Positions 187-62,940 of a stretch of DNA of 64,000 bases are shown one piece after another. Below the pieces are notes generated by a model that ran no database searches, had not been told where the DNA came from, and saw only the letters and a program-made list of their open reading frames with translations. Location of the stretch: assembly GCA_036504095.1 (NCBI GenBank), contig DASXVS010000069.1:14887-78886 (forward strand). Direction: 5' to 3'. A program made the position numbers and the translations under genes. Every line of letters begins with the position of its first letter. Position 1 is the stretch's first letter. Source of the DNA: Armatimonadota bacterium. GTDB taxonomy: Bacteria; Armatimonadota; DTGP01; JAKQQT01.

Positions 187-244
187 GGGGTCGTTGACCT
201 GAGCGCCCCGCGCCAAGCGGCGGGAAGGTCTGGAACACCGACAT
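1..244 (-). CDS. Partial CDS (N-terminus only, runs off the left edge): Pro/Leu-rich 12-aa repeat protein
   Basis: ATG at 244-242 is preceded by GGAAGGA. The frame reads [64 protein letters not shown]... with no stop to position 1. Third codon positions are GC-rich in this frame but not in the plus-strand frame. Confidence 0.35.
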
Positions 245-342
245 TCCGGTCCTTCCCGCAGGCGGCGGAATGCTGTTCAGTCGCCGTACCCACGGCGCTA
301 CGATTCGCCGACTGCAAAACGCGGCGCCACGATCGGAGAGAC

Positions 343-2464: not shown

Positions 2465-2468
2465 GTGA

Positions 2469-5575: not shown

Positions 5576-5591
5576 GCCCACACGCAAACGC

Positions 5592-6926
5592 ATGACGAAA
5601 GGAACCGCTGGGACCATGTTAACCCGAATTACAACCACAATCGCCGTCCTTCTGTCCGCCGCACTGGCCGCGAGGGCAGGGCAAACATCCGACGCATCGC
5701 CGGTTGACATGTCCCAGCCTCTCACCCTGAGCGGCGCGATCAGGATCGCACTGGAGAATCAGAACCAGATCGGCATTGCTCGAAGCCAGCAGTCGGCGGC
5801 GGAGGCGGGGCTTGTGCAGGCGCGCTCGGCGTATTTCCCGACCGTGACGCCCGGCTACCTGAACACCTACCGGAGCGCAACGCGTGGCGCCACCGACACT
5901 CAGAACAGCGCCACCGTTGATCTCACGCAAACCCTCTACGATTCCGGCAAACGCGAGCAGACCGTGGCTCGCGGCCGGAACGCCGTCCGCGCCGCCGCGT
6001 ACAACGTCACCGACGTACGCCAGTCCGTGATCCTGAATGTGACGACCGACTGGTACGAACTGCTAAGGAGCAAGGAGTTGGTGCGCGTGGCCGAATCCGG
6101 TGTGGATCGGGCCAAATCGACCCTGGATGCCACACGTGCATTCGTCGAATCAGGCTCATCCGCGCGGAAGGACGTCCTGCAGGTTCAGGCCGATTACGAC
6201 AATTCGCAGGTTGCCGCCATCCAGGCGCGGAACAACGTGCGGCTTGCCGAGACGACGTTGAAACAGGCGATGGGCATCGTCACGAGCCAGCCGATCCTGA
6301 CGGTCGGCAACGGGGCCGCGGCGCCAGGCCCGACGACGGATGCGCTGGCCGACGATCTTGATCGGGCCTACAACAACCGTCCCGACCTCCGAAGGGCCCT
6401 TCAGGATGCCGATTCCACGCGCCGGGCGGTGACGATGGCCCGCATAGAGGCCGGACCGAAGGTCACGTCCACCGTTGGCGCCACATACAGCGCCCACCCG
6501 AACCCGGGGACGGACAGCGTGATCCTCACGAGCGTAACGTATCCGCTGTTCGATGCGGGAGCTTCCCGGGCGGCGGTCCGCGAGGCGAGGGAGTCGGCGC
6601 GCCAGTCCGCAATGCAGATCGAACTGATGCGGCAGGAGATCGCCGCCGGCGTGGAAACGGCGTTCCTGCAGCGCGAGGAAGCGCGCACAAGGATAGCGGC
6701 CTCGCAGACGGCCCTGGTCGCGGCCAGGGAAAACTACGCCGCGGCCTCCGAGTCGCACCAGGAAGGAAGCGGCACCATCCTGGACGTCATCGCGGCCCAG
6801 AACCAGTTGGTCACCGCCGAAACCAACGCTGTGCAGGCCATCTATGACTATTTCACTGCCGCGGCGCGATTGGAGCGCGCTGTCGGAGCCAATGAGCCCG
6901 GCGGAGCAGAAGGAGAAACCAGATGA
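5592..6926 (+). CDS. TolC-family outer membrane efflux protein
   Basis: Signal peptide, then LTLSGAIRIALENQNQIGIARSQ, the typical TolC/OEP repeat start. Two OEP repeats. The start could instead be 5616. Confidence 0.85.
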   Translation: MTKGTAGTMLTRITTTIAVLLSAALAARAGQTSDASPVDMSQPLTLSGAIRIALENQNQIGIARSQQSAAEAGLVQARSAYFPTVTPGYLNTYRSATRGATDTQNSATVDLTQTLYDSGKREQTVARGRNAVRAAAYNVTDVRQSVILNVTTDWYELLRSKELVRVAESGVDRAKSTLDATRAFVESGSSARKDVLQVQADYDNSQVAAIQARNNVRLAETTLKQAMGIVTSQPILTVGNGAAAPGPTTDALADDLDRAYNNRPDLRRALQDADSTRRAVTMARIEAGPKVTSTVGATYSAHPNPGTDSVILTSVTYPLFDAGASRAAVREARESARQSAMQIELMRQEIAAGVETAFLQREEARTRIAASQTALVAARENYAAASESHQEGSGTILDVIAAQNQLVTAETNAVQAIYDYFTAAARLERAVGANEPGGAEGETR

Positions 6927-8728
6927 GACGGACCAAACCATCATTCGCCATTGCGACCGTGGTGGTCCTGGCTGCGGCGCTGTATATGGCGCTCGGACGG
7001 CGGGATCCCAACGCGGCGCAGATGACCCAGTACAAAGTCGCCGCCGCTCAGATCGGCTCGGTGCGAAAAACAGTCTCATCGACGGGAACTCTCCAGCCGT
7101 GGACCACGGTGGACATCAAGTCCAAGGCCGGCGGGCGCATCGTTCAGATGGCTGTTGACGTCGGCAGTGAGGTGAAGAAGGGGCAGATCATCGCCCGCAT
7201 CGATCCTTCGGACACTCTCTTGAGCGTGGACCAGGCCCGATCCGACATCTCCTCCTCGGACGCGAAGAAGGAACAGAGCCAGCGAACGTATCTGCTGCAG
7301 GTTCAGCAGACCGAGATCTCCATCGCCAATGCCGGGGCCGCCCTGATATCGGCACAGAAGGGGCGCACGGCGGCGGCCGTTCGGCTCGAGACCGCGAAGA
7401 TCCAGGCGGGCGTGCAGCCGGCTCTCACCAAAGCGAGCATCGCCCAGGCCCGGGCCAACTTCAATCAGGCCGTCAAACAGCGGGCGCAACTGAACGCCAC
7501 GAACGAACAGCAAAAGGCCAGCGCACAGTCGGCGTACGATCAGGCGATGGCGAATTCACGCAACAGCCAGTCCAATCTGAAGCGGCAGACCACCCTTCTG
7601 GCCAAGGGCTTCGTCTCCGAACAGAGCATGGAAAACGCCCGCGCCGCCAACGAGGTGTCACAGGCGCAAGTGGACACCGCGCGCGCAAAACTGCAGACGC
7701 TGGACGCCGAATTGAAAGCGGACGTGGACACAGCGGACGCGCGTGTGGAACAGGCGAAAGCGGCGCTGCAAAGCGCCGAAGCCGGCGGCGTTGAAGTGAA
7801 GACCCGTCAGGATGCCGTTCGTGAAGCGGCGGCCGCGCTGGAGCAGGCGGACGCTCAGGTAACCCAGGCGGAGCAGGCTCTGCGCCAGGCAAGGGCCGGC
7901 GTGGCCAATGACGCGATCCGCCGGCTGGATATCGCCAGCGCCGAGGCGAGCCACACGCGCAGCCAGGCGACCTTGAAGAATGCGGACGATACGCTCGCCC
8001 AGACAACGGTCCGCGCGCCGTCCGACGGCGTGATCCTTCAGAAGTACGTCGACCAGGGCACGATCATCACATCCGGCCTCTCCATGAACTCGACCGGTTC
8101 CAGCATCGTCCAGTTGGGGGATACGGCGCGGATGTTTGTGGACGTGACCGTGGACGAGACGGACATCGCCAGCGTGAACGTGGGCCAGCAGGTGGAGGTG
8201 AGCATGGACGCCTATCCCGGCGTCGCCTTCGAGGGCAAAGTGTCCCGCATCGATCCCCGCGCCGTCGCCGAACAGAACGTCACCCAGATCCACGTGCGCG
8301 TTGAGGTGGACAATTCGTCGGCCACGTTCCGCCTGTTGAAGCCGGGGATGAACGCCACGTGCGACTTTATCGTAGGCGAGAAGAGCAGCACCCTCATCGT
8401 GCCCTCCACCGCCGTTCGCTCCGACGACAACGGTTCCTACGTTCAGATCGCCGGCGGCGGTAAACCGGCCCCGGCGGACACGGGTTCCAGCCAGGCCGCC
8501 GATTCGGCCATCCTGGTCGGAGTGAAACTGGCCCGCAGATCGGTGGAAGTCGGTCTGCAGGGCGACGAGGCCACGGAGATCACTTCGGGGCTGAAGAACG
8601 GCGAGATCGTGGTCGTCCAGACCATCGAGCCCGCGACTTCAACAACGCAGAAGACGACCACGAGCGCCATCAAGAGCGGGATGCCCGGTGGCGGCGGCCC
8701 GCCCCCTGGTCCGCCCCCCGGACGGTAG
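6923..8728 (+). CDS. HlyD/MacA-family periplasmic adaptor (membrane fusion protein) with a long coiled coil
   Basis: ATGA overlap with the TolC stop and AAGGAG SD. VDIKSKAGGRIVQMAVDVGSEVKKGQIIARIDP lipoyl-like motif, long Ala/Gln coiled coil, beta-barrel domain. Ends GMPGGGGPPPGPPPGR. Confidence 0.9.
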   Translation: MRRTKPSFAIATVVVLAAALYMALGRRDPNAAQMTQYKVAAAQIGSVRKTVSSTGTLQPWTTVDIKSKAGGRIVQMAVDVGSEVKKGQIIARIDPSDTLLSVDQARSDISSSDAKKEQSQRTYLLQVQQTEISIANAGAALISAQKGRTAAAVRLETAKIQAGVQPALTKASIAQARANFNQAVKQRAQLNATNEQQKASAQSAYDQAMANSRNSQSNLKRQTTLLAKGFVSEQSMENARAANEVSQAQVDTARAKLQTLDAELKADVDTADARVEQAKAALQSAEAGGVEVKTRQDAVREAAAALEQADAQVTQAEQALRQARAGVANDAIRRLDIASAEASHTRSQATLKNADDTLAQTTVRAPSDGVILQKYVDQGTIITSGLSMNSTGSSIVQLGDTARMFVDVTVDETDIASVNVGQQVEVSMDAYPGVAFEGKVSRIDPRAVAEQNVTQIHVRVEVDNSSATFRLLKPGMNATCDFIVGEKSSTLIVPSTAVRSDDNGSYVQIAGGGKPAPADTGSSQAADSAILVGVKLARRSVEVGLQGDEATEITSGLKNGEIVVVQTIEPATSTTQKTTTSAIKSGMPGGGGPPPGPPPGR

Positions 8729-8749
8729 GAGCGCAAAGGAGAAACGACC

Positions 8750-10090
8750 ATGACATCACAACTTCCCAAACCAAAGCCGCTCGTGCCCGAACTGGAACCG
8801 CCTTGTCCACCCAACCGCGCGAACGGGAATGGAACGGCCACCGGGATTACCATCCCGAAGATCATCCTGGCCAAAGGCTTCAACACCGTCAGCCTCCTGA
8901 TGGCCATCCGCGGCCTCGGCGCGAACAAACTGCGCGCGATCCTGACGATGCTGGGTGTGATCATCGGCGTCGGCGCGGTGATCATCGCCATCGCGATCGG
9001 GCAGGGCTCGCGTGAGGCGGTCTCACAGAGCCTGCGTCAACTGGGCACGAACACCCTGAACGTGATGGCCGGCGCCCAGCGCAGCGGTGGCATCGGCTTC
9101 GGCTTCGGGTCCCGCAGCACGATGAAGCCCGCCGACGCGGCGGCGATATTGAAGGACTGTCCCAGCGTCATCCGAGTGTCGCCGCAGGTTCAAGGCGGGG
9201 CCCAGGTCAAATACCAGGACAAGAACGACAACGTCACCGTCTATGGACAGGGCGTGGACTACCCGGACATCAACAACCACCACGTCCGAATCGGGCAGTT
9301 CTTCGACGCGCAGGACGTGAAATCACGCCGCCGCGTGGCCGTGCTCGGCTCCACCACCTTCAAAGACCTGTTTGAGGAGCAGACCGCGGTCGGCAAGTAC
9401 GTGCGCGTGGCCGGACAGCGGTTCGAGGTGGTCGGCGTGTTCCAGTCCAAAGGCGGGACGGGGTTTCGGAATCCGGACAGCGGAGTCTACGTTCCCTACA
9501 CCACCGCCATGCGACGCCTTTTCGGGCAAACGAGCCTGCAGGGCATCACGTGCCAGGCGAGTTCCGACAGCGTCATGAAACGGGCCCAGCAGGAAATCAC
9601 GGAGACGCTGCGGCGCCAGCACGGCATCTTCACCGGGGCGGACGACGATTTCCTCGTGTTCAACCAGGCCGATCTCGCCGCGGCGCAGAACGAACAGCAG
9701 GATACCTTCTCCTCGCTCATCACCTACCTCGCCATCGTTTCGCTGGTTGTGGGCGGCGTGGGGATCATGAACATTATGCTTGTCTCCGTCACGGAACGGA
9801 CCCGCGAAATCGGTGTGCGCAAGGCCATCGGCGCCAAGCGCCGCGATATACTCGTCCAATTCCTGCTGGAGGCCCTCTTCCTGTCGCTGATCGGCGGGGT
9901 GCTGGGCGTCGCCCTCGGTATCGGCGGCGCGAAACTCGTCGAGTCCGTCAACAACTGGACCGTGCTTGTGGCGCCGTCCACGGTGCTTCTCGCGTTCAGT
10001 TTCTCCGCCCTCGTGGGGGCCTTCTTCGGGTTCTATCCCGCGTGGAAAGCCTCGCGCCTGAGCCCGATCGATGCGCTCCGCTATGAGTGA
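8750..10090 (+). CDS. ABC transporter permease, MacB/FtsX family
   Basis: LRGLGANKLRAILTMLGVIIGVGAVI N-terminal TM, periplasmic MacB_PCD-like region, and a C-terminal FtsX domain with ERTREIGVRKAIGAKRRDIL. Confidence 0.9.
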   Translation: MTSQLPKPKPLVPELEPPCPPNRANGNGTATGITIPKIILAKGFNTVSLLMAIRGLGANKLRAILTMLGVIIGVGAVIIAIAIGQGSREAVSQSLRQLGTNTLNVMAGAQRSGGIGFGFGSRSTMKPADAAAILKDCPSVIRVSPQVQGGAQVKYQDKNDNVTVYGQGVDYPDINNHHVRIGQFFDAQDVKSRRRVAVLGSTTFKDLFEEQTAVGKYVRVAGQRFEVVGVFQSKGGTGFRNPDSGVYVPYTTAMRRLFGQTSLQGITCQASSDSVMKRAQQEITETLRRQHGIFTGADDDFLVFNQADLAAAQNEQQDTFSSLITYLAIVSLVVGGVGIMNIMLVSVTERTREIGVRKAIGAKRRDILVQFLLEALFLSLIGGVLGVALGIGGAKLVESVNNWTVLVAPSTVLLAFSFSALVGAFFGFYPAWKASRLSPIDALRYE

Positions 10091-11669: not shown

Positions 11670-11739
11670 CTTGGGGTCTCACGAGCCTTGCTTTGATTTG
11701 CCTCTGGATATTTGTCCGGCGGTCTGCTATCATCTTTGT

Positions 11740-11913
11740 AACATCAGGAGCGACCCTTCGGGGTCCGGCAACCGGGCAGGAGACGCCACGGTGCCAATGA
11801 GGACGCAAGCGTCCTCGATGAGCAAAGGGAGCGATCCCGTTTGAAGAAAAGTCTCCACGGATTGGCCATCCGCCACCGCTTGCTGATGCAACGGTGGCAA
11901 TTTTGCATTTTGG
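11740..11913 (+). promoter_or_regulatory. Candidate structured 5' leader (riboswitch/attenuator-like) or about 170-nt small RNA
   Basis: A series of short GC hairpins with stable loops on the plus strand: gaccc-UUCG-ggguc, ccgg-caa-ccgg, gaggacg-caag-cguccuc, ggga-GCGA-uccc. Possible long-range ggagac/gucucc pairing. Ends in an intrinsic terminator. A possible -10 TATCAT lies at 11728. Confidence 0.45.
11872..11913 (+). terminator. Intrinsic terminator inside the leader
   Basis: gccaccg...cggtggc stem with an inner ugc/gca extension, followed by AATTTTGCATTTTGG. Confidence 0.65.
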
Positions 11914-11970: not shown

Positions 11971-13308
11971 ATGAGTGACCATTCAAATGCCCGAACCCCA
12001 TCCAGCGAGCTCCCGCAGCGCTTCGGCGCGATCCATGCAACCGTAACGCCCGGCGGCATGGCCCGGAATGGCGCTCCCGGTGATCTTGACGAACTCGCCG
12101 CAGCGGCCGTAAGGTTCTTCGCCCGAAGGGGATTGCCGATCGCGGCGGCCCCGAACACAATGGACGGCACGGTGACCCTGGCTGGCCGGTTCGACCCCTC
12201 GCGCCACCCCCTGTTCCGCAACGTATTGAGCCTGTGGACCGCCGAATCGGGCGACGAAACGCCCGGGTGCTTCGTAACCCCCGAGCCGGGTGCAGCCGAT
12301 GACGAGGGAGGATTCCGCAAAGCCTGGGCACGGGAAGAGCGCTGGCAGAACCGTCTCGACCGCATCGCATCGGACCTGGGCTTCCGCACCTGCTCCGGCG
12401 AGGGCGCCCGGTGGGCGCAGGCGGCGGGAGGTCCCGCCGAGCATATCCGGTCGCTCGAAGACGCATTCTCCTCGCTGAGGCAGGACGGACGGGTATCGCG
12501 GTTCCCCCGCAAGCAGATCACAGTCGCTCGCCAGGCCACCTGCGCGCCGTACGGATTGCCCGCCGTCATTCTGAAACTGAAGGGCACGTGCCGCGTGTTT
12601 TCCGAGAGGCTGGGGCGCGACCTGCTGGAGGCGAGCCCGCGTCTCATCTCGCTGACGGAGGTGGCGCCAAGCGTGGTCTTGGCGGAAAACACGCCGCCAC
12701 TGGACAACGTGTGGGACGACAGCCGCTTCTGGGCGGCCTGGCAGTCTTTGCCGCCTTCGGCGTGGGAGGTGGTAGACGCCTGGGCGGCGGTGCGCGTCCT
12801 GCGGTACGTGGAAACCCCGGACGGCGAGTGGCGCTTCTATGCGCAGACGCATCAGGCCCGCAACGTTGTGCAGGCGCCCGAAGACCTGCCGGCGGCGCCG
12901 GACCAGCCGCCGGCCATCGCCTCCGCCGAAGCGGAGCGCTGGCGACGGCGGCGCTGCTGCGAGATCGCGCTGGCGCTGCGCCTCAACGCCGCGGATGACG
13001 GCGGGCTGTGCCGGCACGCCATCGGCAACCTCGCAGCCCCCTATCCCTTCGTCCACCGGTTGAACAGCAACGCGCCCGGCGTACGCGCCGTCGAAACGTA
13101 TCTCGCGAAAGCCGCGACCGTGCTGCACTGGGAACTCCTGTGCCGCGAACAAGCCGCCGACGGGCCCGTCTTGACCGCCGAGTATGCCGGCATCGTCCGT
13201 AATGCGCGCACGGGTCTGCGGCAGGTTCAACAGCATCTGCTCTCGGCCGCGTGCGCCTACGAGGTTGTGGACGATGAGCCGGCGACCGTGGCGGCCCGCG
13301 CCCGGTAA
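11971..13308 (+). CDS. Hypothetical protein, 445 aa, no domain recognised
   Basis: GGAG SD before the ATG. Balanced composition (D/E/W-rich), unlike the Arg-rich antisense ORF 11983..13704. Confidence 0.6.
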   Translation: MSDHSNARTPSSELPQRFGAIHATVTPGGMARNGAPGDLDELAAAAVRFFARRGLPIAAAPNTMDGTVTLAGRFDPSRHPLFRNVLSLWTAESGDETPGCFVTPEPGAADDEGGFRKAWAREERWQNRLDRIASDLGFRTCSGEGARWAQAAGGPAEHIRSLEDAFSSLRQDGRVSRFPRKQITVARQATCAPYGLPAVILKLKGTCRVFSERLGRDLLEASPRLISLTEVAPSVVLAENTPPLDNVWDDSRFWAAWQSLPPSAWEVVDAWAAVRVLRYVETPDGEWRFYAQTHQARNVVQAPEDLPAAPDQPPAIASAEAERWRRRRCCEIALALRLNAADDGGLCRHAIGNLAAPYPFVHRLNSNAPGVRAVETYLAKAATVLHWELLCREQAADGPVLTAEYAGIVRNARTGLRQVQQHLLSAACAYEVVDDEPATVAARAR

Positions 13309-50185: not shown

Positions 50186-51316
50186 GTGAAAGACATCCGG
50201 TCACTGCTCGACATCTGCATCGATCGTGACGGCTCGGACCTCCATATCGAGGCGGGCGAACCTCCTGTACTGCGCTTGCACGGTCGTCTCGTGCGCCTGA
50301 GGGAACTCGGCGAGCTTACGGGGGATGACACCGAGCACCTGATGAAGGCCATCGCCTCCCCCCGCTCCCAACAGGAGATCGAAGAGCGCGGCGGGGCGGA
50401 TTTTGGATTCACCTATCCCGGGCGCGGGCGGTTCCGCGTATCGGTTTTTCAGCAGCGCAACTCCATCGCCATCAACATGCGCCTCATTCCGTTTCGCCTG
50501 CTGTCGTTCGAGCAGTTGGGCCTTTCCGCCAGCGTTCAGAAATTGCTGCACGCTCCGCGCGGCCTCATCCTCATCACGGGGCCAACCGGCAGCGGGAAGA
50601 CCACCACGCTGGCCACGATGATCGACTACATCAACGTTCATCGCGATGCTCATATCATTACCATCGAAGACCCTATCGAGTATTTCCATTCGCCGAAACA
50701 GAGCATCATCACGCAGCGCGAAGTGCATGTGGACGTGCCTTCATTTGAGGAGGGCGTTATCAAGGCTTTGCGCCAGGACCCGGACGTGATCCTGGTGGGC
50801 GAGATGCGCGACCTCAATACAATCGGCGCCGCCATCACCGCCGCGGAAACAGGCCACCTGGTGCTCTCCACTCTGCACACAACCGGCGCGGCGCGCACTG
50901 TGGACCGCATCACCGACGTTTTCCCGATGGAACAGCAGGAGCAGATCCGCGTGCAGTTGTCCGGCAACCTCACGGCGGTTATCTCACAGCTTCTGCTGCC
51001 CAAAAAGGACGGCAGCGGACGCATCCCGGCGTACGAGATCATGGTCTGCACGCCGGCCATCCAGCACATGATCCGCGACCACAAGACGCACAGCATCTTC
51101 AGCGCCATCCAGACGGGAAGCCAGCTGGGCATGATCGCGCTGGACGACCACCTGGTGCAGCTATACAAGCGCGGCGCGATCGGCAAGGACGAGATGATCC
51201 GTGTAGCGCAGAAGCAGGAAGAGATCTACGAGAAGATCGGCGAAGCGCCGCCGGCCGGCATGGTGAGCATCGCCAAGGCGAACGCGCAGACGCCGAACGC
51301 CGTGGGCAGACAGTAG
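50186..51316 (+). CDS. pilT: Type IV pilus twitching-motility ATPase
   Basis: DLHIEAGEPPVLRLHG, GPTGSGKTTTLA, ITIEDPIEY, ILVGEMRD, TGHLVLSTLHT. GTG start. Confidence 0.92.
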   Translation: MKDIRSLLDICIDRDGSDLHIEAGEPPVLRLHGRLVRLRELGELTGDDTEHLMKAIASPRSQQEIEERGGADFGFTYPGRGRFRVSVFQQRNSIAINMRLIPFRLLSFEQLGLSASVQKLLHAPRGLILITGPTGSGKTTTLATMIDYINVHRDAHIITIEDPIEYFHSPKQSIITQREVHVDVPSFEEGVIKALRQDPDVILVGEMRDLNTIGAAITAAETGHLVLSTLHTTGAARTVDRITDVFPMEQQEQIRVQLSGNLTAVISQLLLPKKDGSGRIPAYEIMVCTPAIQHMIRDHKTHSIFSAIQTGSQLGMIALDDHLVQLYKRGAIGKDEMIRVAQKQEEIYEKIGEAPPAGMVSIAKANAQTPNAVGRQ

Positions 51317-51611
51317 GCCGGAAACGAAGAGACGGAAACGATAAAGTATGAACGATGAATTCCGAATCGGCGTACTGAGTATTGAGTGTTGAGTATTGTG
51401 TATTGGGGGCCTTTGGGGGCGTCCGGGCATTGCCTGGGCGCCCCCTCCGCATTCGGTAGCGTGCCGGCGTTGGAACGACGTCGATTGCGTCTTCGGCCGA
51501 CGTCCGATTGAACCTATGATGTTTGTCACAGTGCGGGATGATGGCTTGACCAGCGCGTTTGGGGGGTGGCATCATATACGAACATACGTTTGTATTTCAC
51601 AGAAGAGCGCT

Positions 51612-52166
51612 ATGACCTCACACACTACCAACCTGCAGATCGACGGGTTCCTCCATCGCTGGGCGTTCGTCTCGTACGCCAACATCGAGCATTTCGCCGG
51701 GCGGTCGGCCCAGTGGATGCGTCTTCAGCCACCGCCGCGTTTCGCCGCCGGCGCCCTGCCGGACTGGGGCGTGGGCATCCGGCGGGATGCGCTGCCCGGC
51801 GGGGTGGATGCCGTTTGGAGCCTGGACGACGGGGCGTACGTGATACGCGTTTCGCCGTTCCTCGCCCCGGCGCGCGCGAATTTCACGCTGTGGCACGAGT
51901 GGTTCGAGGTGATGGCGTCGCGCCCCGCCTTTCCCGGCCGCTACACACCGCACCGGCTGGAGCGCCTGGCCGACCTCTACGCGGCCGCCATCACGATGCC
52001 CGCGGATACCGTCGCCCGTTCGCTTAAGGAGTTTCGGGACTCCGGCGATAAGGCGGATGTGATGGCGGCGCGCTTCGGCATCAGCGTGGCCGCCATGCGC
52101 CGGCGGATTCGCGAGTTGGCGCCGGACCGCCGCATCCGGCCGGCGGGATGGGACTCCATCCGCTGA
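51612..52166 (+). CDS. ImmA/IrrE (DUF955)-like protein with a degenerate metal motif
   Basis: NFTLWHEWFEVMAS (H-E-x-x-E in place of HExxH) and LADLYAAAITMPADTV, which match ImmA family landmarks. Confidence 0.5.
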   Translation: MTSHTTNLQIDGFLHRWAFVSYANIEHFAGRSAQWMRLQPPPRFAAGALPDWGVGIRRDALPGGVDAVWSLDDGAYVIRVSPFLAPARANFTLWHEWFEVMASRPAFPGRYTPHRLERLADLYAAAITMPADTVARSLKEFRDSGDKADVMAARFGISVAAMRRRIRELAPDRRIRPAGWDSIR

Positions 52167-54893: not shown

Positions 54894-55208
54894 GTGGAAA
54901 TTCAGACCGTAAAAAGCCCGTACGCCGCGCCCGAAGCGCTCCGCACGCGCACGCGGCCATTCGCTCCGGCGAGTGCTCGCCGGCGTCCCGTGGCCACCTG
55001 GCAGGCACATGCCCAGGCGGCGCTCGGCGCCAAACTGGAAACCCGGACCGCAATTGTCATCACCGATGTGCCGGCGAAAGCCAGCCGGCTGAAGACCGCC
55101 CCGGCGCGCAGCCGAACTGCGCCGCGGGTGTGGGATTGGTGGCAGGTGATCGCGCCGGTCGCCATCGCACTTTGCGCCATCGCTCAGTTGGCGCAGAGCG
55201 TCCGATGA
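54894..55208 (+). CDS. Hypothetical tail-anchored membrane protein (104 aa)
   Basis: GGAGGAGAGG SD then GTG. C-terminal TM WDWWQVIAPVAIALCAIAQLA. Arg/Ala-rich body, so the coding status is uncertain. Confidence 0.35.
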   Translation: MEIQTVKSPYAAPEALRTRTRPFAPASARRRPVATWQAHAQAALGAKLETRTAIVITDVPAKASRLKTAPARSRTAPRVWDWWQVIAPVAIALCAIAQLAQSVR

Positions 55209-55285
55209 CACGCCGCGCACAAAAGCCCGGCCGGAAGAGATTGGGGGAACGAGACGATGAGTCCTGTTCCCCCATTCTCTGTTTC

Positions 55286-55530
55286 GGGGGTCAGGATTCA
55301 GGGGTCAGGATTCAGCATTCAGGATCCGGCATCCAGCATCCAGCATCCAGGGTCGGGATTCAGGGGTCAGGATTCAGAATTCAGGATCCGGCATCCAGCA
55401 TCCAGCATCCAGGGTCGGGATTCAGGGGTCAGGATTCAGAATTCAGAATTCAGGATCCAGCATCCGGCATCCAGCATCCAGGGTCAGGGTTCAGGGGGCA
55501 AGGGGCAGGGCTCAGGAGCCAGGGGACAGG
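55286..55530. repeat. Higher-order tandem repeat (62-bp period) built from 6-7 nt words (caggatt, cagcatc)
   Basis: ggtcgggattcagg recurs at 55351 and 55413. The flanks are degenerate. Confidence 0.85.
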
Positions 55531-55600
55531 AAACTCGATGGAGGCTGGATCAGCGGATGATTCAGCCTCCATCTTCATAGTTCCTGTTTCCCGCTTGCGG

Positions 55601-56434
55601 TCAGGGTGTTGTCGCTGCCGGTTCGGCGGGTTGCGACGAAGGGCTGGCGGCGTTCAAATCGGCAACTCCGGATTGGGCGCGGGAACGCCATTCCTTCAGG
55701 CGCGCGATGTGGTCGGGATCCTGTTCGGAGGCCAGCAGCGTATCGCACATCGAGATTTCGCGCTCGTACAGGGATTTGGCGCCGGTGGCGTCGGAGTTAT
55801 TGACGCGGATTTCGGCGGCGGCGTGGATGGCGCTGATAGATGCGTCCGCGGTGGGATCCGCGTCGGCCATCTGCACGAGCAGCCGGGTGACACCGTCCCA
55901 GTCGCCTTGATCGGCCTTGTTGCCGGCCAGGCGCACGAACTCCTGCTGATCCTTGGTGAGGGTTTCGTTCTGCAGCCACGCGAGGATGGTATTGCTGGAT
56001 TCGTTGGGCGGCGCGCCGGGGATCTCCTTGATCTTCATCCTGGGCTGGGGGACGCCCGGCTTCACCGGCGGCACGTACGTTGGGGTGATGTCATTGGCCG
56101 GGGTTTCGTTTCGCGCGATGGACGGGGGGTTGGCATGCAGGCGCGCCAGATTGACCCCGTTTCTAACACCGGCGTCGTACGCGATGATGGCGAGGATCAT
56201 GCCGGCGAGGGCGACGCTGGTTGTGGGGATCCACGCCCAGTTCCGCTGGTGCACCGGCTGGCGAAGGCGCAGGTCGTCGGCGATGACCGTCATCAGCCGG
56301 CGGTAGCTTTCATCTTCACCCGGCGCGGCCGGTTCAACCATTGCCGCGCGCAGGGTGGCTACTGTTCCGGGATCTTCGCAGATCCGCTCTTCCTGCCGCC
56401 TGCCATGCAGCATCCAGGACCATAGATTACCCAC
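55601..56434 (-). CDS. Single-pass membrane protein downstream of an ECF sigma, putative anti-sigma factor
   Basis: Position after the sigma gene. TM WIPTTSVALAGMILAIIAY. Helical C-terminal domain. No zf-HC2 motif. Confidence 0.5.
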   Translation of the reverse strand: MGNLWSWMLHGRRQEERICEDPGTVATLRAAMVEPAAPGEDESYRRLMTVIADDLRLRQPVHQRNWAWIPTTSVALAGMILAIIAYDAGVRNGVNLARLHANPPSIARNETPANDITPTYVPPVKPGVPQPRMKIKEIPGAPPNESSNTILAWLQNETLTKDQQEFVRLAGNKADQGDWDGVTRLLVQMADADPTADASISAIHAAAEIRVNNSDATGAKSLYEREISMCDTLLASEQDPDHIARLKEWRSRAQSGVADLNAASPSSQPAEPAATTP

Positions 56435-56485: not shown

Positions 56486-57079
56486 TCATTGATCGACGTT
56501 GGGCCGTACATCTTCCGTAAAATACTCGTCCGCACGGATAAGACCGCGCAACTTGGAAATAGCCCGGTGCAGATGGCTTGTGACCGCCGATACCGACGGC
56601 TTGCCGGTCACCAGAGCGATTTCCTTGAGCGACAGTTCCTGCTGATAGGCGAGGGCCAGGATTTCGCGGTCCGCGTCGGAGAGTTGGTCCAGGGCCGCTT
56701 TCACGCGGTCCACGCGCTCCTCTTCGAGTATGCGGTCCAGCAGCGATGGTTCGCCCGAGGGCAGTTCCATCGTCTGGCCTTCTTCCGACTCCAGCGCGCT
56801 GAAAGTCCATGGCTTTCTTGAGCGCTGATGGTCGATCAGCAGATTCCGGGCGATTTTGAGCAGAAACGGGCCAAACCGGCCCTGTTCCCGCACCTCGTAG
56901 TGACCGATGGCGCGATACGCGTTCACGAACGTATCGGCGGCCAGGTCTTTTGACGTTTCCTCATCGCGTATGCACCGATGGAGATAGCCCCACACTCGCT
57001 TGTAGTAGCGTTTGTGGAGTTCGCCGAAGAGGGCAAGGTCGCCCGCCTGCACCTTCCGGATAATCACTTCATCGGTCAT
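56486..57079 (-). CDS. ECF-type sigma-70 family factor
   Basis: Region 2 (DLAADTFVNAYRAIGHYEV) and region 4 (LSLKEIALVTGKPSVSAVTSHLHRAISKL). Confidence 0.88.
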   Translation of the reverse strand: MTDEVIIRKVQAGDLALFGELHKRYYKRVWGYLHRCIRDEETSKDLAADTFVNAYRAIGHYEVREQGRFGPFLLKIARNLLIDHQRSRKPWTFSALESEEGQTMELPSGEPSLLDRILEEERVDRVKAALDQLSDADREILALAYQQELSLKEIALVTGKPSVSAVTSHLHRAISKLRGLIRADEYFTEDVRPNVDQ

Positions 57080-57430
57080 TGGGTGTATCGCACTTCCGCG
57101 TGTTTCATGATGCTAACGATAGCAGGCGGTGAAATGTCACGGACACGGGAGCCAGGGTTCAGGATTCAGGATTCGGGATTCAGGATGAAGTGGACGATTG
57201 GCCGACGGCGCTTCAGGCGGGTGTTTCAATGCCCGACGCCCGGAAAGGCCGATTGGCCGCCCCCAGCCCATCAGGCGCAAGCCGGGTAAGCCTTTCGTTG
57301 CACGGGAAATCGTCCTGCGTTTGGCCGTTCTAAAATCGATAATTGAGGTAGCTCGGTAAAGTGCGCGGGTCCCGCGGTCGAAAAGAAGAAATGACGAGCA
57401 CAGGACTGCTCGCAAGGGAGAGTGACGACG

Positions 57431-58744
57431 ATGGCTATAGCTAACCGTGCGGAGGTCGCCGAGCCGGTGCAGCAGTTCCGGAAGACCGTTACCGAGGAGG
57501 ACGTTCTGTGCCTCCTGAACAAATATCGCCTGGACCGCGACGAACGGGCGCGCGAAGCGCTGGTCGTTTACCACCGCCCCCTCGTAGAGAAAGTCGCCCG
57601 CCGGTTCGTCGATACCGGCGAGCCGATGGAGGACCTCGTGCAGGAGGGCTATCTGGGCATGCTCACAGCCATAGACCTCTTCGACACCACGTTCAGCGTC
57701 AAGTTCTCCACCTACGCCCACCATCTCATTACGGGTCAGATCCGCCATTATCTTCGGGACAAGGGCACCATCATCCGCGAGCCGGCGTGGAGCCAGGATT
57801 TGCGCCGCATCATCAAGAAGACATCCGCCGACCTGACGAGCCGGCAGCGGCGGGAGCCCACGGTCGCCGAATTGGCGGGCGCGTGCAACATCACGGAGGA
57901 GGCGCTGACGGAGGTCCTTCAGGCCGAACAGGTTTCCAAAGTGGTCTCGCTGGACGGCTTTACGGAAGACGACGCACCCGCCGTTGACCCGGACAAGATC
58001 CGCAGCCTGCGCCTCGTCTCGTTCCATATCCCGCTGGAAGAGCGCATCGTGCTGGAGGATATGGTCTCCAATCTCAAGCTGATCGAACAGCGCGTTGTGC
58101 ACGAGTTCTTTTTCCAGGACCTGTCTCAGACCGAAATCGCCAAGGCGCTCGGCGTATCGTGCAATTACGTGAGCCACCTGCTGAAATCGGCCGTGAAGAA
58201 GATGGGCAAGAGCCTGGCGTATACCGAACTCCAGGAGCGCCAGTTGCGGCAGAAGCAATCCGCGTCCGGCAGCGACTACGGCGAGGGCAGCATCGTGGAC
58301 CGTGTGACGGGCCTCTACACCCAGGACCACTACGTCCGGCGGATGGAAGAGGAAATCGTCCGGGCACAGCGCTATGTGCAGGAATTGTCCACGGTCTGGG
58401 TACGCTGCGTGAATTTCGATGAATATTCCAATCGCCTGGGAAGCGAATGGGGCGAACGAACGCTGTTCAGCATCGGCGCGGCTCTCCGCGATTGCGTGCG
58501 GCGCTGTGACGTCGGCGCGTACATCGGCGACGCGGTCTTCGCGGTGATTCTCCCTCACACCGGCGAAGGCGCGCGTATGGTGCGCGACCGCCTGCTCTCA
58601 ACCCTGAGCGAAGTCGAGTACACCCGCGGCGCCCGCCTGGAGTTCCGCGGCGCGTCACTCATCATCCCGCAGGACGGATCCTCCGCGCGCGAGATCTGCG
58701 ACAACGCCGAATACGAACTGAGCCGCCCACTGGTAGCGGGATAG
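57431..58744 (+). CDS. Group-3 (SigB/SigF/FliA-like) sigma factor fused to a degenerate GGDEF domain
   Basis: Sigma regions 2-4 (DLVQEGYLGMLTAIDLFD, FSTYAHHLITGQIRHYLR, LSQTEIAKALGVSCNYVSHLLKSAVKKM). Then DRVTGLYTQDHY...VNFDEYSNRLG...RRCDVGAYIGDAVFAVILP. GGGAGAG SD before the ATG at 57431. Confidence 0.85.
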   Translation: MAIANRAEVAEPVQQFRKTVTEEDVLCLLNKYRLDRDERAREALVVYHRPLVEKVARRFVDTGEPMEDLVQEGYLGMLTAIDLFDTTFSVKFSTYAHHLITGQIRHYLRDKGTIIREPAWSQDLRRIIKKTSADLTSRQRREPTVAELAGACNITEEALTEVLQAEQVSKVVSLDGFTEDDAPAVDPDKIRSLRLVSFHIPLEERIVLEDMVSNLKLIEQRVVHEFFFQDLSQTEIAKALGVSCNYVSHLLKSAVKKMGKSLAYTELQERQLRQKQSASGSDYGEGSIVDRVTGLYTQDHYVRRMEEEIVRAQRYVQELSTVWVRCVNFDEYSNRLGSEWGERTLFSIGAALRDCVRRCDVGAYIGDAVFAVILPHTGEGARMVRDRLLSTLSEVEYTRGARLEFRGASLIIPQDGSSAREICDNAEYELSRPLVAG

Positions 58745-58813
58745 AGTTTCGGTGACGGGTGACGGGTGTCAGGTTTCGGGTGGCGGGTTTCGGGTGGCGG
58801 GTTTCGGGTGGCG

Positions 58814-58846
58814 GGTGTCAGGTGGCGGGTCCTGCCACCTGACACC
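58814..58846. terminator. 13-bp-arm hairpin inside a gggtgnc-word repeat block, between convergent genes
   Basis: ggtgtcaggtggc - gggtcct - gccacctgacacc. Confidence 0.7.
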
Positions 58847-58857
58847 CGAAACCCTCC

Positions 58858-60039
58858 TCAGGGGCTGTCAAACCCCATGAGGTAAGAGATGCCGTCCGTC
58901 CCCTGGATTGTTCGCGCGAAGAAACGATCGGTGCTCGCGTCATACGTGGGGCGCTGCGGGCGTCCGACAACCGTATAGGACCGCATACCGCCTCCCGTCA
59001 CTGAGAACAGGTTCATTGTATTGCCGTCGCCGTAGGCAGCGATATTGCGCGAACTGACTACCATTCCGCCGGCGCCATAGGACCCATAATACAGGCCGCG
59101 AACGCTCCCGGATTCCGCGTCGATGGCAACGACCTCGGCGATATTGCTGCTTTGGACGGACGCATAGATGGTTCCGCCCGGATCCTGATCGGCGGAAGTT
59201 GGCGACGCGGAGATCTCAGTGTATGCACCCAAATCCGACGGGCCAAGCACGATCCGGCCGGGGTGGGTTGAGGGCCCGAACCGCGGGTCAGGAGCCAGAG
59301 TTGACGAGTTCAGTTTGACGACTGACGAGTTAAGCGACGCCGTTCCGTAGTATATCCCGTCGCCGCGAACATACGCTGGCGACCAGCCCTGTGGCGCCGG
59401 CATTGTTGCGGCCTTCACTGTCAGATCGCTCCGATTCAAAACAATGATGCTCAGATTATTGGGCGGACGCGTCACCGATGTATAGATGTTGTCTCCCACA
59501 ACGGCTGGCGAACCTGCCCAGTCATAATACGTACTTGAGAGCGGGGGAGAGGTCATCACGGTCGTTCCATCGGACTCCTTGAGTTTGACGATGAAGATGT
59601 TTGCGGAGGTCTTCCTCTCAACGATGACGGTGCCATCCGGAGTAACTGCCGGAGTCGCCGTGCCGCCGTAACTCGATGAACCGGCAAATGAATTAGTCCA
59701 AGCAATGGATCCATTTGGCCATATCTTGACGACTCCACCTTTGGACGTTGTCAAGTAGATCGCTTTTCCCAATGCACCGTAATACACGGAAGGCCGCGTG
59801 ATCGGGTAGCTGTTATCTCCAATTGCGGCTCGGACATCAAGTGGGAAACCGGATACGCTGGAACCATCCGTAGCGTTGACAGCATACAGCCTGCCGTCAG
59901 ACGTTCCGAAATACACGACGCCCTCGCTCGCTATGGGATCCATCAAGACGGCGTTGAAGCTCAGCTTGATCTGCTGGGCGCGGAGCGATGAAGTGAGCAG
60001 CAGCATACCGGCCAATGTCAAGAAGCACCTGATGTTCAC
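58858..60039 (-). CDS. Secreted PQQ-like beta-propeller repeat protein
   Basis: GGAGG then GTG at 60039. Signal peptide. GVVYFGTSDGRLYAVNATDGS and repeated similar blades. Confidence 0.7.
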   Translation of the reverse strand: MNIRCFLTLAGMLLLTSSLRAQQIKLSFNAVLMDPIASEGVVYFGTSDGRLYAVNATDGSSVSGFPLDVRAAIGDNSYPITRPSVYYGALGKAIYLTTSKGGVVKIWPNGSIAWTNSFAGSSSYGGTATPAVTPDGTVIVERKTSANIFIVKLKESDGTTVMTSPPLSSTYYDWAGSPAVVGDNIYTSVTRPPNNLSIIVLNRSDLTVKAATMPAPQGWSPAYVRGDGIYYGTASLNSSVVKLNSSTLAPDPRFGPSTHPGRIVLGPSDLGAYTEISASPTSADQDPGGTIYASVQSSNIAEVVAIDAESGSVRGLYYGSYGAGGMVVSSRNIAAYGDGNTMNLFSVTGGGMRSYTVVGRPQRPTYDASTDRFFARTIQGTDGISYLMGFDSP

Positions 60040-60194
60040 GTTCCCTCCGCAGCTATGCAGGTAGAATGAGCGGCGCACCGGAGTCACGTGACCACGGGGT
60101 GTACCGGGTAACGGGTGACAGGTGACGGGTGCCGGGTGGCGGTTTCCAGTCCCCGGCACCTGGCACCTGACACCCGACACTCGGCCCTCAGCCC

Positions 60195-60449
60195 TCAAGC
60201 CTCAGCCCTCACCTGCGCATCCGCTTCCTCCATCTGGCGGAGGTAGTCGAAGACTTCGTTGGCCTCCTGCTCGTCCAGTTTGCTGAGGGCGAAGCCAACG
60301 TGCACGATCACGTAGTCACCAACGTTGGCTTCGGGCACGAAACTGAGGTTGACGTCGCGCGAGACGCCGCCAAAATCCACTTTGCCCGCCCGCAGCACGG
60401 GGTCCGTGTTCTCGATGCTCTTTATCTTGCCTGGGACGGCGAGACACAT
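60195..60449 (-). CDS. hypC: [NiFe]-hydrogenase maturation chaperone HypC/HybG/HupF family
   Basis: MCLAVPGKI N-terminus, 84 aa, GDYVIVHVGFA. Confidence 0.9.
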   Translation of the reverse strand: MCLAVPGKIKSIENTDPVLRAGKVDFGGVSRDVNLSFVPEANVGDYVIVHVGFALSKLDEQEANEVFDYLRQMEEADAQVRAEA

Positions 60450-60560: not shown

Positions 60561-60640
60561 ATTCATCGTTCATCGTTCAAGCTTCATCGTTTCCGCGTTC
60601 ATCGTTCATCGTTCAAGCTTCATCGTTCATCGCTCATCGT
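60561..60640. repeat. Tandem duplication of about 38 bp made of catcgtt words, overlapping the hypF stop
   Basis: ttcatcgttcatcgttcaagcttcatcgtt occurs twice. Confidence 0.8.
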
Positions 60641-62940
60641 TTCCGCTGCGCGGCCATCACCTGGCCGAGGGCGATGCCGCCATCGTTCGGCGGCACACTC
60701 CGATGCCAGTATGCGTGGAAGCCCTCGATCTCCAGCCGGCGCACGGCGTGCTCCAGCAGGTACGCGTTCTGGAAGCAACCTCCGCTGAGGACGACGTTTC
60801 TGATCCCGACCTTCGCGGCGATGGTCGCGACGGATTCGACCAGGGCGTTGTGGAAGCGCACCGAGACGACGCGCGGCCGCACGCCGCTCCGCACATCACT
60901 CAGCACGGCCTCGAGCACGGGTAACCAGTCCACAACGATGGGACCGTCCGGACCCTGCCGGTCGAATCCGAACTCATAGCCCTCGCCGGCGCTGGCGCCG
61001 TCCAGCGCGAATTCCAGTTCGATGGCGGCCTGGCCCTCGAATTTGTCCTCGTGGCGCACGCCGCAGAGGCTGGCCACCGCATCGAACAGCCGCCCGATGC
61101 TGGATGTCCTCTGCACGTTCACGCCGGAGCGCAGCATGGAGCAAAGCGTTTCGCGCTCGGTCATGTTGAACGAGCGGATCGCGGCGAGGTCGGTCCAGTC
61201 GACGATCCCGTCACCGAAGGCCTCGTACAGGAGCCCGAACGCGGAGCGGCGTGGTTCCCTGATCGCGGCGTCTCCGCCCGGGAGCGGGAAGGTGCGGAGA
61301 TGGGCGGCGCGGGTGAAAGACGCGTCGTCGATCGCCAGGTATTCGCCGCCCCAGATCGTTCCGTCCAGGCCGTAGCCCGTGCCGTCCCAAACCACACCCA
61401 GTGCCGGGGCGTCGAGGCCGTTATCCGCCATGCACGAGAGGGCGTGAGCGTAATGGTGCTGAACGGTGACGGCCGGAGTATCCATCGCCATCGCCGCCTG
61501 CGTGGACATGTAGTCGGGGTGGGCGTCGCACGCGACGACCTCGGGCGTGATCTCGTAAAGGCGCTGCAGATCGGCGACGACGCGATTGAACGCGGCGCCG
61601 GCCTGCACGGTTTCCAGATCGCCGATGTGCTGGCTGATGAACGCCTCGTGGCCCACGGCGACCGCCACCGCGTTCTTGAGATGTGCGCCGACGGCCAGGA
61701 TGGGACGCGTTTCCTCGGGGATCGGAACCGGCATTGGAGCGTACCCGCGCGCGCGCCGGAGGACGATTTCACGCCCCAGCAGGACGCGCACCACGGAGTC
61801 ATCCACGTGGCGGGTGATGGGCCGGTTGTGAATGAGGAAGCAGTCGGCGATGCCTTTCAGCCGCTCGACGGCCTCCGTTTCGTTCGTGCAGATCGGCTCG
61901 TCCGAGAGATTGCCGCTGGTCGCCACGACGGGGAACCCAAGCTCCGCCATCAGCAGATGGTGCAGCGGGGTGTACGGCAGCATCGCGCCGAGAAAGGGAT
62001 TCTTTGGCGCCACGGCGTCGGCGATGATGCTCCCGCCCGCCTGATGCCGGCGCAGCAGCACGATCGGCGATTCCGGCGCGAGCAGCAGGCGCTCCTCGGG
62101 ATCGGACACGTCGCATTCCGCGCGGATGTGCTCCACCGAGGGGAACATCAGCGCCAGCGGCTTCTCCTCGCGGCGCTTTCGACGGCGAAGGCGGCGCACC
62201 GCGGTCTGGTCGCACGCATCGACGATCAGGTGGAAACCGCCCAGCCCCTTCACCGCCACCACGTGGCCCTTCTGGATGGAGGCCGTGGCGGCGAGGAGCG
62301 CTTCGTCGTGGGTTGCGCGCACGATGCCCTTGGAATCCCAGAACTCCAGTTGCGGGCCACAGTCCGGGCAGGCGTTGGGCTGCGCGTGGAATCGGCGGTC
62401 GCGCGGATTCTCATACTCGGCCTGGCAGCGTTCGCACATTTCGAAGCCGCGCATCGTGGTGTTCCGGCGGTCGTACGGGAGCGCCTCGATGATGCTGAAG
62501 CGCGGGCCGCAGTTGGTGCAGTTCGTGAACGGGTAGCGGTAGCGGCGGTTCTCGGGGTCCAGAATTTCGTGCAGGCAATCCGGGCATGTGGCCATATCCG
62601 GCAGAACGAGCGCGGACTTGGCGCCCTGATGTGTGCTACGGCGGATTTCGAAACCCATATAGCCGGCGGCCTTGAGCACTTTCGGTTCCACGCTGCGGAT
62701 GGACGCGCGGGGCGGTTTGTCCGCCTCGAGGCGCGTGAGGAAATGGCGGACGGTCGCGTCCGGGCCTTCCACTTCGATGAAGACCCCCTGAGGCGAATTG
62801 TTCACCCATCCGGCGAGGCCCAATTCCGTGGCCAGGCGGTACACAAATGGCCGGAATCCTACCCCCTGCACGGCGCCGCGTACAGCGACGTGCATCCTCG
62901 TGGGGGAGACCCCGTTCTTCCTCGCGCGATCAACGGCCAT
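60634..62940 (-). CDS. hypF: Carbamoyltransferase HypF
   Basis: Acylphosphatase domain (VRGAVQGVGFRPFVYRLA), two CxxC-x18-CxxC zinc fingers, YrdC-like and Kae1-like domains. 768 aa. Confidence 0.95.
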   Translation of the reverse strand: MAVDRARKNGVSPTRMHVAVRGAVQGVGFRPFVYRLATELGLAGWVNNSPQGVFIEVEGPDATVRHFLTRLEADKPPRASIRSVEPKVLKAAGYMGFEIRRSTHQGAKSALVLPDMATCPDCLHEILDPENRRYRYPFTNCTNCGPRFSIIEALPYDRRNTTMRGFEMCERCQAEYENPRDRRFHAQPNACPDCGPQLEFWDSKGIVRATHDEALLAATASIQKGHVVAVKGLGGFHLIVDACDQTAVRRLRRRKRREEKPLALMFPSVEHIRAECDVSDPEERLLLAPESPIVLLRRHQAGGSIIADAVAPKNPFLGAMLPYTPLHHLLMAELGFPVVATSGNLSDEPICTNETEAVERLKGIADCFLIHNRPITRHVDDSVVRVLLGREIVLRRARGYAPMPVPIPEETRPILAVGAHLKNAVAVAVGHEAFISQHIGDLETVQAGAAFNRVVADLQRLYEITPEVVACDAHPDYMSTQAAMAMDTPAVTVQHHYAHALSCMADNGLDAPALGVVWDGTGYGLDGTIWGGEYLAIDDASFTRAAHLRTFPLPGGDAAIREPRRSAFGLLYEAFGDGIVDWTDLAAIRSFNMTERETLCSMLRSGVNVQRTSSIGRLFDAVASLCGVRHEDKFEGQAAIELEFALDGASAGEGYEFGFDRQGPDGPIVVDWLPVLEAVLSDVRSGVRPRVVSVRFHNALVESVATIAAKVGIRNVVLSGGCFQNAYLLEHAVRRLEIEGFHAYWHRSVPPNDGGIALGQVMAAQRKR

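Follow-up and report, generated by a model that had tools for sequence, protein, structure and literature searches.

We analyzed a 64,000-nucleotide stretch of DNA from an Armatimonadota bacterium (hereafter the window; GenBank assembly GCA_036504095.1, contig DASXVS010000069.1) and identified in it a gene in which a sigma factor and a degenerate GGDEF domain are joined in one polypeptide (the sigma–GGDEF gene; Table 1). The open reading frame (ORF) runs without interruption on the plus strand from 57422 to 58744 and comprises 440 codons from a GTG. Translation likely begins at the ATG at 57431, which sets the gene at 57431–58744, since this codon lies 9–10 nt 3′ of a Shine–Dalgarno-like GGGAGAG that the GTG at 57422 directly abuts, and since the database copy of the protein (P0001) is 437 amino acids long; residue numbers below count from the GTG (440-residue numbering). 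An antisense ORF of 473 amino acids (57137–58558, minus strand) overlaps the gene and exceeds its length; it is a spurious product of the high G+C content and misleads gene callers that pick the longest ORF, and a caller of this kind dropped the window gene because the antisense frame is longer.

The N-terminal half of the protein contains every conserved part of a group 3 sigma factor. A Pfam profile search of the window protein returned four domain matches that all exceed their cut-offs, three of them to sigma-70 regions 2, 3 and 4; only about 45 residues precede region 2, and neither region 1.1 nor a large non-conserved insert is present, as expected of group 3. The top NCBIfam match is the SigB/F/G model TIGR02980 (166.6 bits), followed by the cyanobacterial-type SigF model NF005644 (145.8 bits, likewise below its curated cut-off). 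Because 166.6 bits falls short of the curated TIGR02980 cut-off of 234.35, the protein is, by its profile scores, a divergent relative of the SigB/SigF/SigG subfamily and not a formal member. A Foldseek search with the predicted structure matched the N-terminal half to SigB, SigA and SigS.

The C-terminal half is a GGDEF domain in both profile and predicted fold. Beside the fourth Pfam match, NCBIfam assigns this part to the diguanylate-cyclase-type domain TIGR00254 (44.9 bits against a cut-off of 37.4). An AlphaFold model of the window protein made with 28 family members has a mean predicted local distance difference test score (pLDDT) of 80.5 and block means of 91–97 over the GGDEF part (residues 290–435), and the distant member P0042 is modelled with this architecture too, its GGDEF pLDDT values being mostly near 90 with dips to 66–73. 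Foldseek aligned the C-terminal half with the isolated GGDEF domains 4urs, 4yme and 3ign at target template modelling (TM) scores of 0.83–0.88 and 1.8–2.2 Å. The two halves are connected by a tether that is predicted to be partly helical in both modelled members: a long helix (residues 247–280) leaves region 4.2 toward the GGDEF domain, and the distance from the region 4 motif to the GGDEF domain is 44–45 residues in 82 of 119 members, a constrained length.

The catalytic residues of this GGDEF domain are gone. The segment DRVTGLY begins at residue 293, VNFDEYSNRLG occupies residues 330–340, and R360-R-C-D363, five residues and G369-D-A-V-F373 follow at nt 58499–58540. In a HMMER alignment to the diguanylate cyclase WspR, GDAVF falls on GGEEF, V330 on the metal-binding aspartate D211, S336 on the guanine-binding asparagine N217 and E345 on D226; the C-terminal phosphate-binding motif is also lost. 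The window protein has none of the features of an active cyclase (GG[DE]EF, metal-binding Asp, guanine-binding Asn or Asp), and, judged from these residues, the domain is unable to make cyclic di-GMP (c-di-GMP). A preliminary description of this DNA had read a single unbroken frame of 440 codons, a complete group 3 sigma factor, GGDEF landmarks in these same three segments and a destroyed catalytic signature, and the profile, alignment and fold results agree with it on each of these points.

The fusion recurs widely. When one genome per species was scanned, 235 species-representative stretches proved to encode a relative, and each of the 120 listed relatives (35–92% identity, mostly 405–515 amino acids) carries the sigma regions together with PF00990. 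Host taxonomy was drawn from the 80 listed of the 235 stretches, and among these every host named below the level of "bacterium" belongs to Armatimonadota (Chthonomonadales, Fimbriimonadales, Armatimonadaceae and Capsulimonadales); Chthonomonas calidirosea is one of the listed hosts, and several of the listed stretches lie on chromosomes or megabase-scale contigs. One protein-search match, P0059, is labelled Chloroherpetonaceae, a family outside Armatimonadota, and represents a contig binned wrongly or else an infrequent transfer out of the phylum. The phyletic distribution identifies the sigma–GGDEF fusion as ancient, stable and conserved across the phylum. When the C-terminal domain alone was searched against 1.84 billion representatives, only the window's own subclade scored below 1e-30 and other family members ranked among generic GGDEF domains; with this outcome, no catalytically active sigma–GGDEF ancestor was found. 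Canonical GGEEF matches of similar length, considered as active sigma–GGDEF proteins, were rejected as GAF- or REC-PAS-GGDEF proteins. PADLOC returned only a sigma-domain resemblance to MzaA, and we do not regard the gene as a defense gene.

To define which residues the family retains, we aligned 120 members (119 listed relatives and the window protein, with P0001 left out) together with the GGDEF domain of WspR, and the values that follow refer to these 120 members. Sequence identity between pairs of members averages 62% over the sigma half and 35% over the GGDEF half. Of the 145 GGDEF columns, only six never vary: R307, E310, E311, R360, D363 and R390. Near-invariant positions are R314 and T296 (99% each), R317 (98%) and D293 and Y299 (97% each). 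Across the catalytic columns, the signature reads G (45%), D (41%), x, x, F (93%) and no member has GG[DE]EF, the column of the metal-binding aspartate (WspR D211) holds E in 28% and D in 17%, and the column of the guanine-binding asparagine is unconstrained.

Several of the retained residues coincide with the c-di-GMP inhibitory site (I-site) of diguanylate cyclases, and the HMMER alignment places R360, D363 and R317 on WspR R242, D245 and R198. Intercalated c-di-GMP forms a bridge between two GGDEF domains in WspR, R198 is the arginine that the neighboring GGDEF domain donates to the bound nucleotide, and the R242A and R198A mutants of De et al. purify nucleotide-free (PMC2270323). In our family the RxxD stands five residues upstream of the degenerate signature and is accompanied by the conserved arginines R390 (100%) and R317 (98%), as in receptor-type GGDEF domains. 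R390 is probably the equivalent of PleD R390, the third residue of the primary inhibitory site, which stands in the PleD segment A-E-R-I-R, and PleD also uses additional arginines to complete its c-di-GMP site. GGDEF domains can fold without an RxxD, and many that are not subject to feedback inhibition no longer have one. Because the RxxD and its arginines are conserved and the metal, guanine and signature columns vary, the alignment reads as purifying selection that kept the inhibitory-site pocket, and nothing catalytic, through the whole history of the family while the catalytic residues drifted. We rejected the frequency of RxxD among representative matches as a baseline, which is biased because the query itself contains RxxD.

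Taken at the level of residues, this conservation pattern is that of the receptor-type degenerate GGDEF domains PopA and PelD. The preliminary description had made the same comparison from an RxxD at canonical I-site spacing; the motif proved invariant in 120 of 120 members, and the overall interpretation offered there is supported, with the fold, the orthologues and the RxxD all coming out in its favor. We lean toward the view that the gene encodes an alternative sigma factor of SigB/SigF/SigG type that carries its own second-messenger sensor in one polypeptide and would perceive c-di-GMP through the retained inhibitory site.

We examined the genomic surroundings for partners of the sigma–GGDEF gene. 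The preliminary description had drawn attention to a divergent extracytoplasmic function (ECF) sigma/anti-sigma pair and a PAS-PP2C phosphatase; the ECF sigma and phosphatase genes exist, and their suggested relevance is not supported, since relatives of 83–85% identity have other neighbors. Those orthologues adjoin a putative PP-loop ATPase gene (a reading of the sequence, with no Pfam match) and a BNR/dockerin gene, and none of the neighbors of the window gene is present beside them. We therefore rejected the ECF sigma/anti-sigma pair as functional partners and consider the ECF and PP2C context incidental, with the phosphatase gene 55 kb away. No STAS or RsbW-type gene was identified beside the PAS-PP2C/histidine kinase pair (1289–3776).

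Family-wide, the most frequent context is type IV pilus assembly. Neighbors were counted at 76 loci where ORF calling recovered the sigma–GGDEF gene, with Pfam annotation of the most frequent neighbor clusters. At approximately 26–28 of these loci, about a third, genes for the secretin PilQ, PilB (T2SSE), PilT and PilC (T2SSF) immediately precede the sigma–GGDEF gene on its own strand. A genome-scale contig of 5.37 Mb has the full pilM-N-O-(P)-Q-B-T-C cluster, in the order pilM-pilN-pilO-(213 amino acids)-(738 amino acids)-pilB-pilT-pilC, then 127 bp, then the sigma–GGDEF gene. In a second, less common context (6–9 loci), the gene is preceded by AAA ATPase, NHL-repeat and TPR/WD40 genes, and at some of these loci a polysaccharide deacetylase gene follows it. 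In the clustering and partial Pfam annotation of the 76 loci, no RsbW/SpoIIAB-type anti-sigma or STAS antagonist recurs beside the gene, and the Pfam-annotated surroundings on the 5.37-Mb contig and in the 83–85% identical relatives contain none. Within the window, a PilT-like ATPase gene 6 kb upstream is followed by an M78/IrrE-like peptidase gene, and PilB, PilC and PilQ are all absent; this region may be what a rearrangement has left of the pilus synteny. A helix-turn-helix and M78 gene pair lies near the sigma–GGDEF gene in the close relatives L082 and L084. A Pfam MshEN match in the adjacent PilB proteins was rejected as a c-di-GMP motif, as it reflects only the generic N-terminal domain. 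The right end of the Capsulimonadales locus L058 encodes, on the minus strand and less than 6 kb from the sigma–GGDEF gene, a partial canonical diguanylate cyclase with FGGEEF and no RxxD, which is the single other GGDEF protein seen in approximately 1 Mb of flanks; the window itself encodes no canonical GGEEF protein.

Two elements recur upstream of orthologues. Motif A, CTAAAG-N15-(CT)GGCAATAAT, occurs 67–208 nt 5′ of the start codon in 32 orthologues (score of at least 17 bits), mostly of Chthonomonadales. Since its GGCAA core is close to the SigF −12 element GGTAA, we consider motif A a candidate autoregulatory promoter; in about 1 Mb of loci its sites are confined to the region upstream of the sigma–GGDEF gene, so that no regulon can be derived from them. 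The window contains no CTAAAG-N15-GGCAATAAT site of 9 bits or more, and the motif is absent from L001 too. In 17 orthologues, the conserved core CGTACGATGGGAACGAAGGCG lies approximately 35 nt before the ATG, enclosed in a hairpin whose stem varies between loci in a compensatory manner, with four of seven predicted pairs changed on both sides. A search of Rfam with this hairpin of the 5′ untranslated region returned no family, and the element may be a new cis-regulatory RNA. The small hairpin at 57394–57413, just 5′ of the ribosome-binding site of the window gene, differs from it. A further upstream candidate, "motif C" (ATATTCAAGC), was rejected as a promoter because it belongs to pilC, whose coding sequence is conserved at this 3′ end.

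Table 1. Positions of the features described here, in window coordinates unless a locus is named
Feature	Coordinates	Strand	Remarks
Sigma–GGDEF fusion gene	57431..58744	+	437 amino acids from ATG 57431; ORF opens at GTG 57422; stop codon included
Sigma-70 region 2 (residues 47–115)	57560..57766	+	Core binding, −10 recognition; Pfam Sigma70_r2, 65.5 bits; strongly conserved in family
Sigma-70 region 3 (residues 128–185)	57803..57976	+	Pfam r3, 40.6 bits
Sigma-70 region 4 (residues 211–261)	58052..58204	+	Invariant S-C-N-Y in recognition helix; Pfam r4 (221–261), 28.9 bits
Linker (residues 262–290)	58205..58291	+	First part continues last sigma-4 helix (predicted helix 247–280)
Degenerate GGDEF domain (residues 291–431)	58292..58714	+	Pfam PF00990, 52.8 bits, E 5e-14, gathering cut-off 23.8
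First GGDEF helix	58340..58372	+	Conserved R307, E310, E311, R314, R317; HMMER and family alignments
RxxD inhibitory-site motif (R360-R-C-D363)	58499..58510	+	R and D invariant in 120/120 members
Degenerate signature G369-D-A-V-F373	58526..58540	+	Replaces GG[DE]EF; HMMER alignment to WspR, family alignment
R390, invariant	58589..58591	+	Helix after signature strand; aligns with WspR K273 in A-E-K-V-R
ECF sigma gene	56486–57079	−	Divergent from sigma–GGDEF gene
Presumed anti-sigma gene	55601–56434	−	277 amino acids; next gene downstream of ECF sigma; no Pfam match
PQQ/BamB-like beta-propeller gene	58858–60198	−	Converges on sigma–GGDEF gene
PilT-like T2SSE ATPase	50186–51316	+	48% identical to clustered PilT; 6 kb upstream, same strand
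M78/IrrE-like peptidase gene	51396–52166	+	Follows PilT-like ATPase gene
PAS-SpoIIE/PP2C phosphatase	1289–2464	−	55 kb from sigma–GGDEF gene; directly downstream of HAMP histidine kinase gene
HAMP-HisKA-HATPase histidine kinase	2469–3776	−	Directly upstream of PAS-SpoIIE/PP2C gene
Pseudopilin-like protein	31–1230	+	N-terminal methylation motif and DUF1559
OEP-HlyD-MacB/FtsX efflux gene set	5508–10090	+	
SAM-I/IV (S-adenosylmethionine) riboswitch aptamer	11736–11859	+	49.8 bits against gathering score 41.1
hypC-like hydrogenase maturation gene	60195–60449	−	Putative, read from translation alone (MCLAVPGKI...)
hypF-like hydrogenase maturation gene	60634–62940	−	Putative, read from translation alone
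Motif A, example in L003	5881–5918		
Motif A, example in L021	5707–5744		
Motif A, example in L027	2348–2385		
Motif A, example in L060	2159–2196		
CGTACGATGGGAACGAAGGCG hairpin, example in L022	1662–1715		
CGTACGATGGGAACGAAGGCG hairpin, example in L007	621–674		
CGTACGATGGGAACGAAGGCG hairpin, example in L052	2739–2792		

Other features of the window include tandem arrays with a 7-nt period that fill the intergenic regions around the gene (55283–55530, 57153–57186, 58746–58830 and 60562–60641; units TCAGGAT, CAGGATT, GGTGTCG, also read as the 14-mer GTTTCGGGTGGCGG, and TTCATCG). One array starts 2 nt past the sigma–GGDEF stop codon, another lies approximately 250 nt upstream of the start, and a further one separates the hypC-like and hypF-like genes. 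The arrays create spurious ORFs such as 55130–56425 (plus strand), with GSGFRIQ repeats, and presumably resemble the short tandemly repeated repetitive (STRR) heptamers of cyanobacteria. Downstream of the SAM-I/IV aptamer, the ORF 11971–13308 (plus strand) has no Pfam match at E≤1e-4 and is overlapped by a 573-amino-acid ORF on the opposite strand.

Comparison with known systems helps to place the sigma–GGDEF protein. PopA of Caulobacter and PelD of Pseudomonas are degenerate GGDEF domains with an intact RxxD and are established c-di-GMP receptors (PMC10333796, PMC12564702). Like the window protein, both have lost GG[DE]EF and retain an RxxD five residues upstream together with an additional arginine, and in both the receptor function is exerted via the inhibitory site. 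They differ in partner and output, with REC-REC domains, polar localization and control of proteolysis in PopA and a transmembrane-GAF partner and polysaccharide synthesis in PelD, whereas the partner here is a complete sigma factor and the output would be promoter selection. WspR and PleD share with the window protein the residues equivalent to WspR R242, D245 and R198 and a helical stalk before the domain, but both are functional cyclases that the site switches off, and the window protein has no catalysis to inhibit. In Streptomyces, as described in PMC7005675, c-di-GMP controls the group 3 sigma factor WhiG post-translationally by arming the anti-sigma factor RsiG. RsiG is a separate protein that holds the nucleotide via its own helical motifs and has no GGDEF domain, whereas the sensor of the window protein is covalently fused and of the GGDEF inhibitory-site type.

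On the sigma side, Synechocystis SigF is a related group 3 factor that autoregulates and drives pilA1 (PMC2532724). The window protein resembles SigF and the SigB/F/G subfamily in its best profile matches, and motif A of its orthologues resembles the SigF −12 element, but the scores stay below the NCBIfam cut-offs and no RsbW/SpoIIAB neighbor recurs in the examined loci. We know of no SigB/F/G member with a C-terminal sensor domain. In the ECF41 and ECF42 sigma factors, a regulatory domain fused after region 4 replaces a separate anti-sigma; these factors belong to group 4 and lack region 3, and the domains they add, SnoaL-like or TPR, are not known to involve a nucleotide messenger. The window protein has region 3 and so falls outside group 4, and its likeness to these ECF factors is one of logic only. 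A full-text literature search that included explicit sigma–GGDEF phrases found no description of this fusion, in keeping with the preliminary description, whose author knew of no sigma polypeptide with its own GGDEF-type sensor; c-di-GMP receptor reviews of 2023 and 2025 include PopA and PelD among receptors with a degenerate GGDEF domain and list no sigma factor, and NCBIfam contains no model specific to the family. Both modules and the receptor principle are known, and their combination seems to be new.

The fusion may let c-di-GMP act directly on the sigma factor. The inhibitory site is retained in full, with the RxxD, R390 in the helix after it and R317 on the first helix. In the most likely mechanism, c-di-GMP would bind R360, D363 and R390, probably in the form of an intercalated dimer, and be bridged to R317 of a second GGDEF domain, resulting in dimerization as in WspR and PleD; alternatively, an arginine-rich surface of the sigma part could complete the site and create an intramolecular clamp. 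The dimerized or locked state would be passed via the fixed-length helical linker to region 4 and alter binding to the RNA polymerase core or to the −35 element, such that the GGDEF domain would be an integral anti-sigma or co-activator module operated by its ligand. Type IV pilus and cell-surface functions probably belong to the regulon, as suggested by the position of the gene at the close of the pilus assembly cluster in many species and by the precedent of Synechocystis SigF. We tentatively propose, as the most far-reaching form of this model, that the sigma factor is itself the c-di-GMP receptor and that cross-linking or clamping of its GGDEF domain acts throughout Armatimonadota as a built-in, ligand-operated anti-sigma switch for promoter choice, probably at type IV pilus and surface genes.

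Several observations weigh against such a c-di-GMP switch. AlphaFold places the sigma and GGDEF domains without a confident mutual arrangement (predicted TM scores 0.39 and 0.41 for the window protein and P0042), and the pilus synteny is lost in the window's own subclade. The c-di-GMP-binding MshEN motif is found in none of 24 adjacent PilB proteins under strict or relaxed matching, so that the pilus link does not itself imply c-di-GMP, and approximately 1 Mb of flanking DNA encodes one canonical GGEEF protein, that of L058. The invariant residues R307, E310 and E311 are unexplained by the known inhibitory site and could mark a protein–protein surface.

This last point would fit a different role for the domain as a ligand-free pseudo-enzyme scaffold, a constitutive dimerization or partner-binding module (for example, a tether to the pilus machinery, to RNA polymerase or to an anti-sigma factor) whose conserved charges would form a protein–protein interface in place of a nucleotide pocket. 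The spacing of R307, E310, E311, R314 and R317 defines one helix face, as in an interaction stripe; the helical linker is like the stalks of dimerizing cyclases, with the stalk-bearing GCN4-WspR, DgcB and DgcR among the Foldseek matches, and the single diguanylate cyclase seen nearby also fits this explanation. Against it, the exact c-di-GMP-binding triad of WspR (also that of PleD and PelD) is 98–100% conserved in a domain that otherwise averages 35% identity, including a motif that the GGDEF fold is generally known to do without. We judge a pure scaffold less likely than the inhibitory-site receptor.

Less probable again is that the pocket binds another nucleotide (3′3′-cGAMP, c-di-AMP, GTP or (p)ppGpp) and that the sigma factor reports a signal other than c-di-GMP. 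GGDEF domains that handle cGAMP exist, the Geobacter Hypr GGDEF domain 6d9m and PleD structures with ppGpp or pppGpp (9g85, 9g86) are among the matches in the Protein Data Bank, and ligand identity cannot be read from sequence. The RxxD sites characterized so far bind c-di-GMP, however, and the GTP-binding active-site residues lack conservation, which makes a PdeA-like GTP sensor unlikely. A still weakly active cyclase that makes c-di-GMP locally at promoters is highly improbable: some non-canonical signatures such as AGDEF stay active, as PMC3974145 reports, but the GDAVF signature here is hypervariable in the family and the metal-binding Asp, guanine-binding Asn and C-terminal phosphate-binding motif are lost. 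That a frameshift or misassembly merely fused two neighboring reading frames has a negligible chance of being correct, with no finding in its favor, since fused orthologues of the same architecture and length are abundant in independent assemblies (120 of 120 listed relatives and 235 species representatives, including megabase-scale contigs and chromosomes).

c-di-GMP reaches transcription via dedicated transcription factors, riboswitches and one anti-sigma factor. If the sigma–GGDEF protein senses c-di-GMP as we propose, it would be the first sigma factor to read a nucleotide second messenger without an intermediary protein, would represent the shortest possible path from messenger to promoter selection, and would establish a new mode of sigma regulation that operates without a separate anti-sigma. 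The idea is directly testable because the family offers a mutational handle (R360, D363, R390 and R317) and a candidate cognate promoter. Public databases annotate the relatives only as "sigma-70 family RNA polymerase sigma factor" or "sigma-B factor", and the former name hides the sensor domain. The family spans a poorly studied phylum with cultured members that include Chthonomonas calidirosea, and provides an initial clue to how type IV pili are regulated in Armatimonadota.

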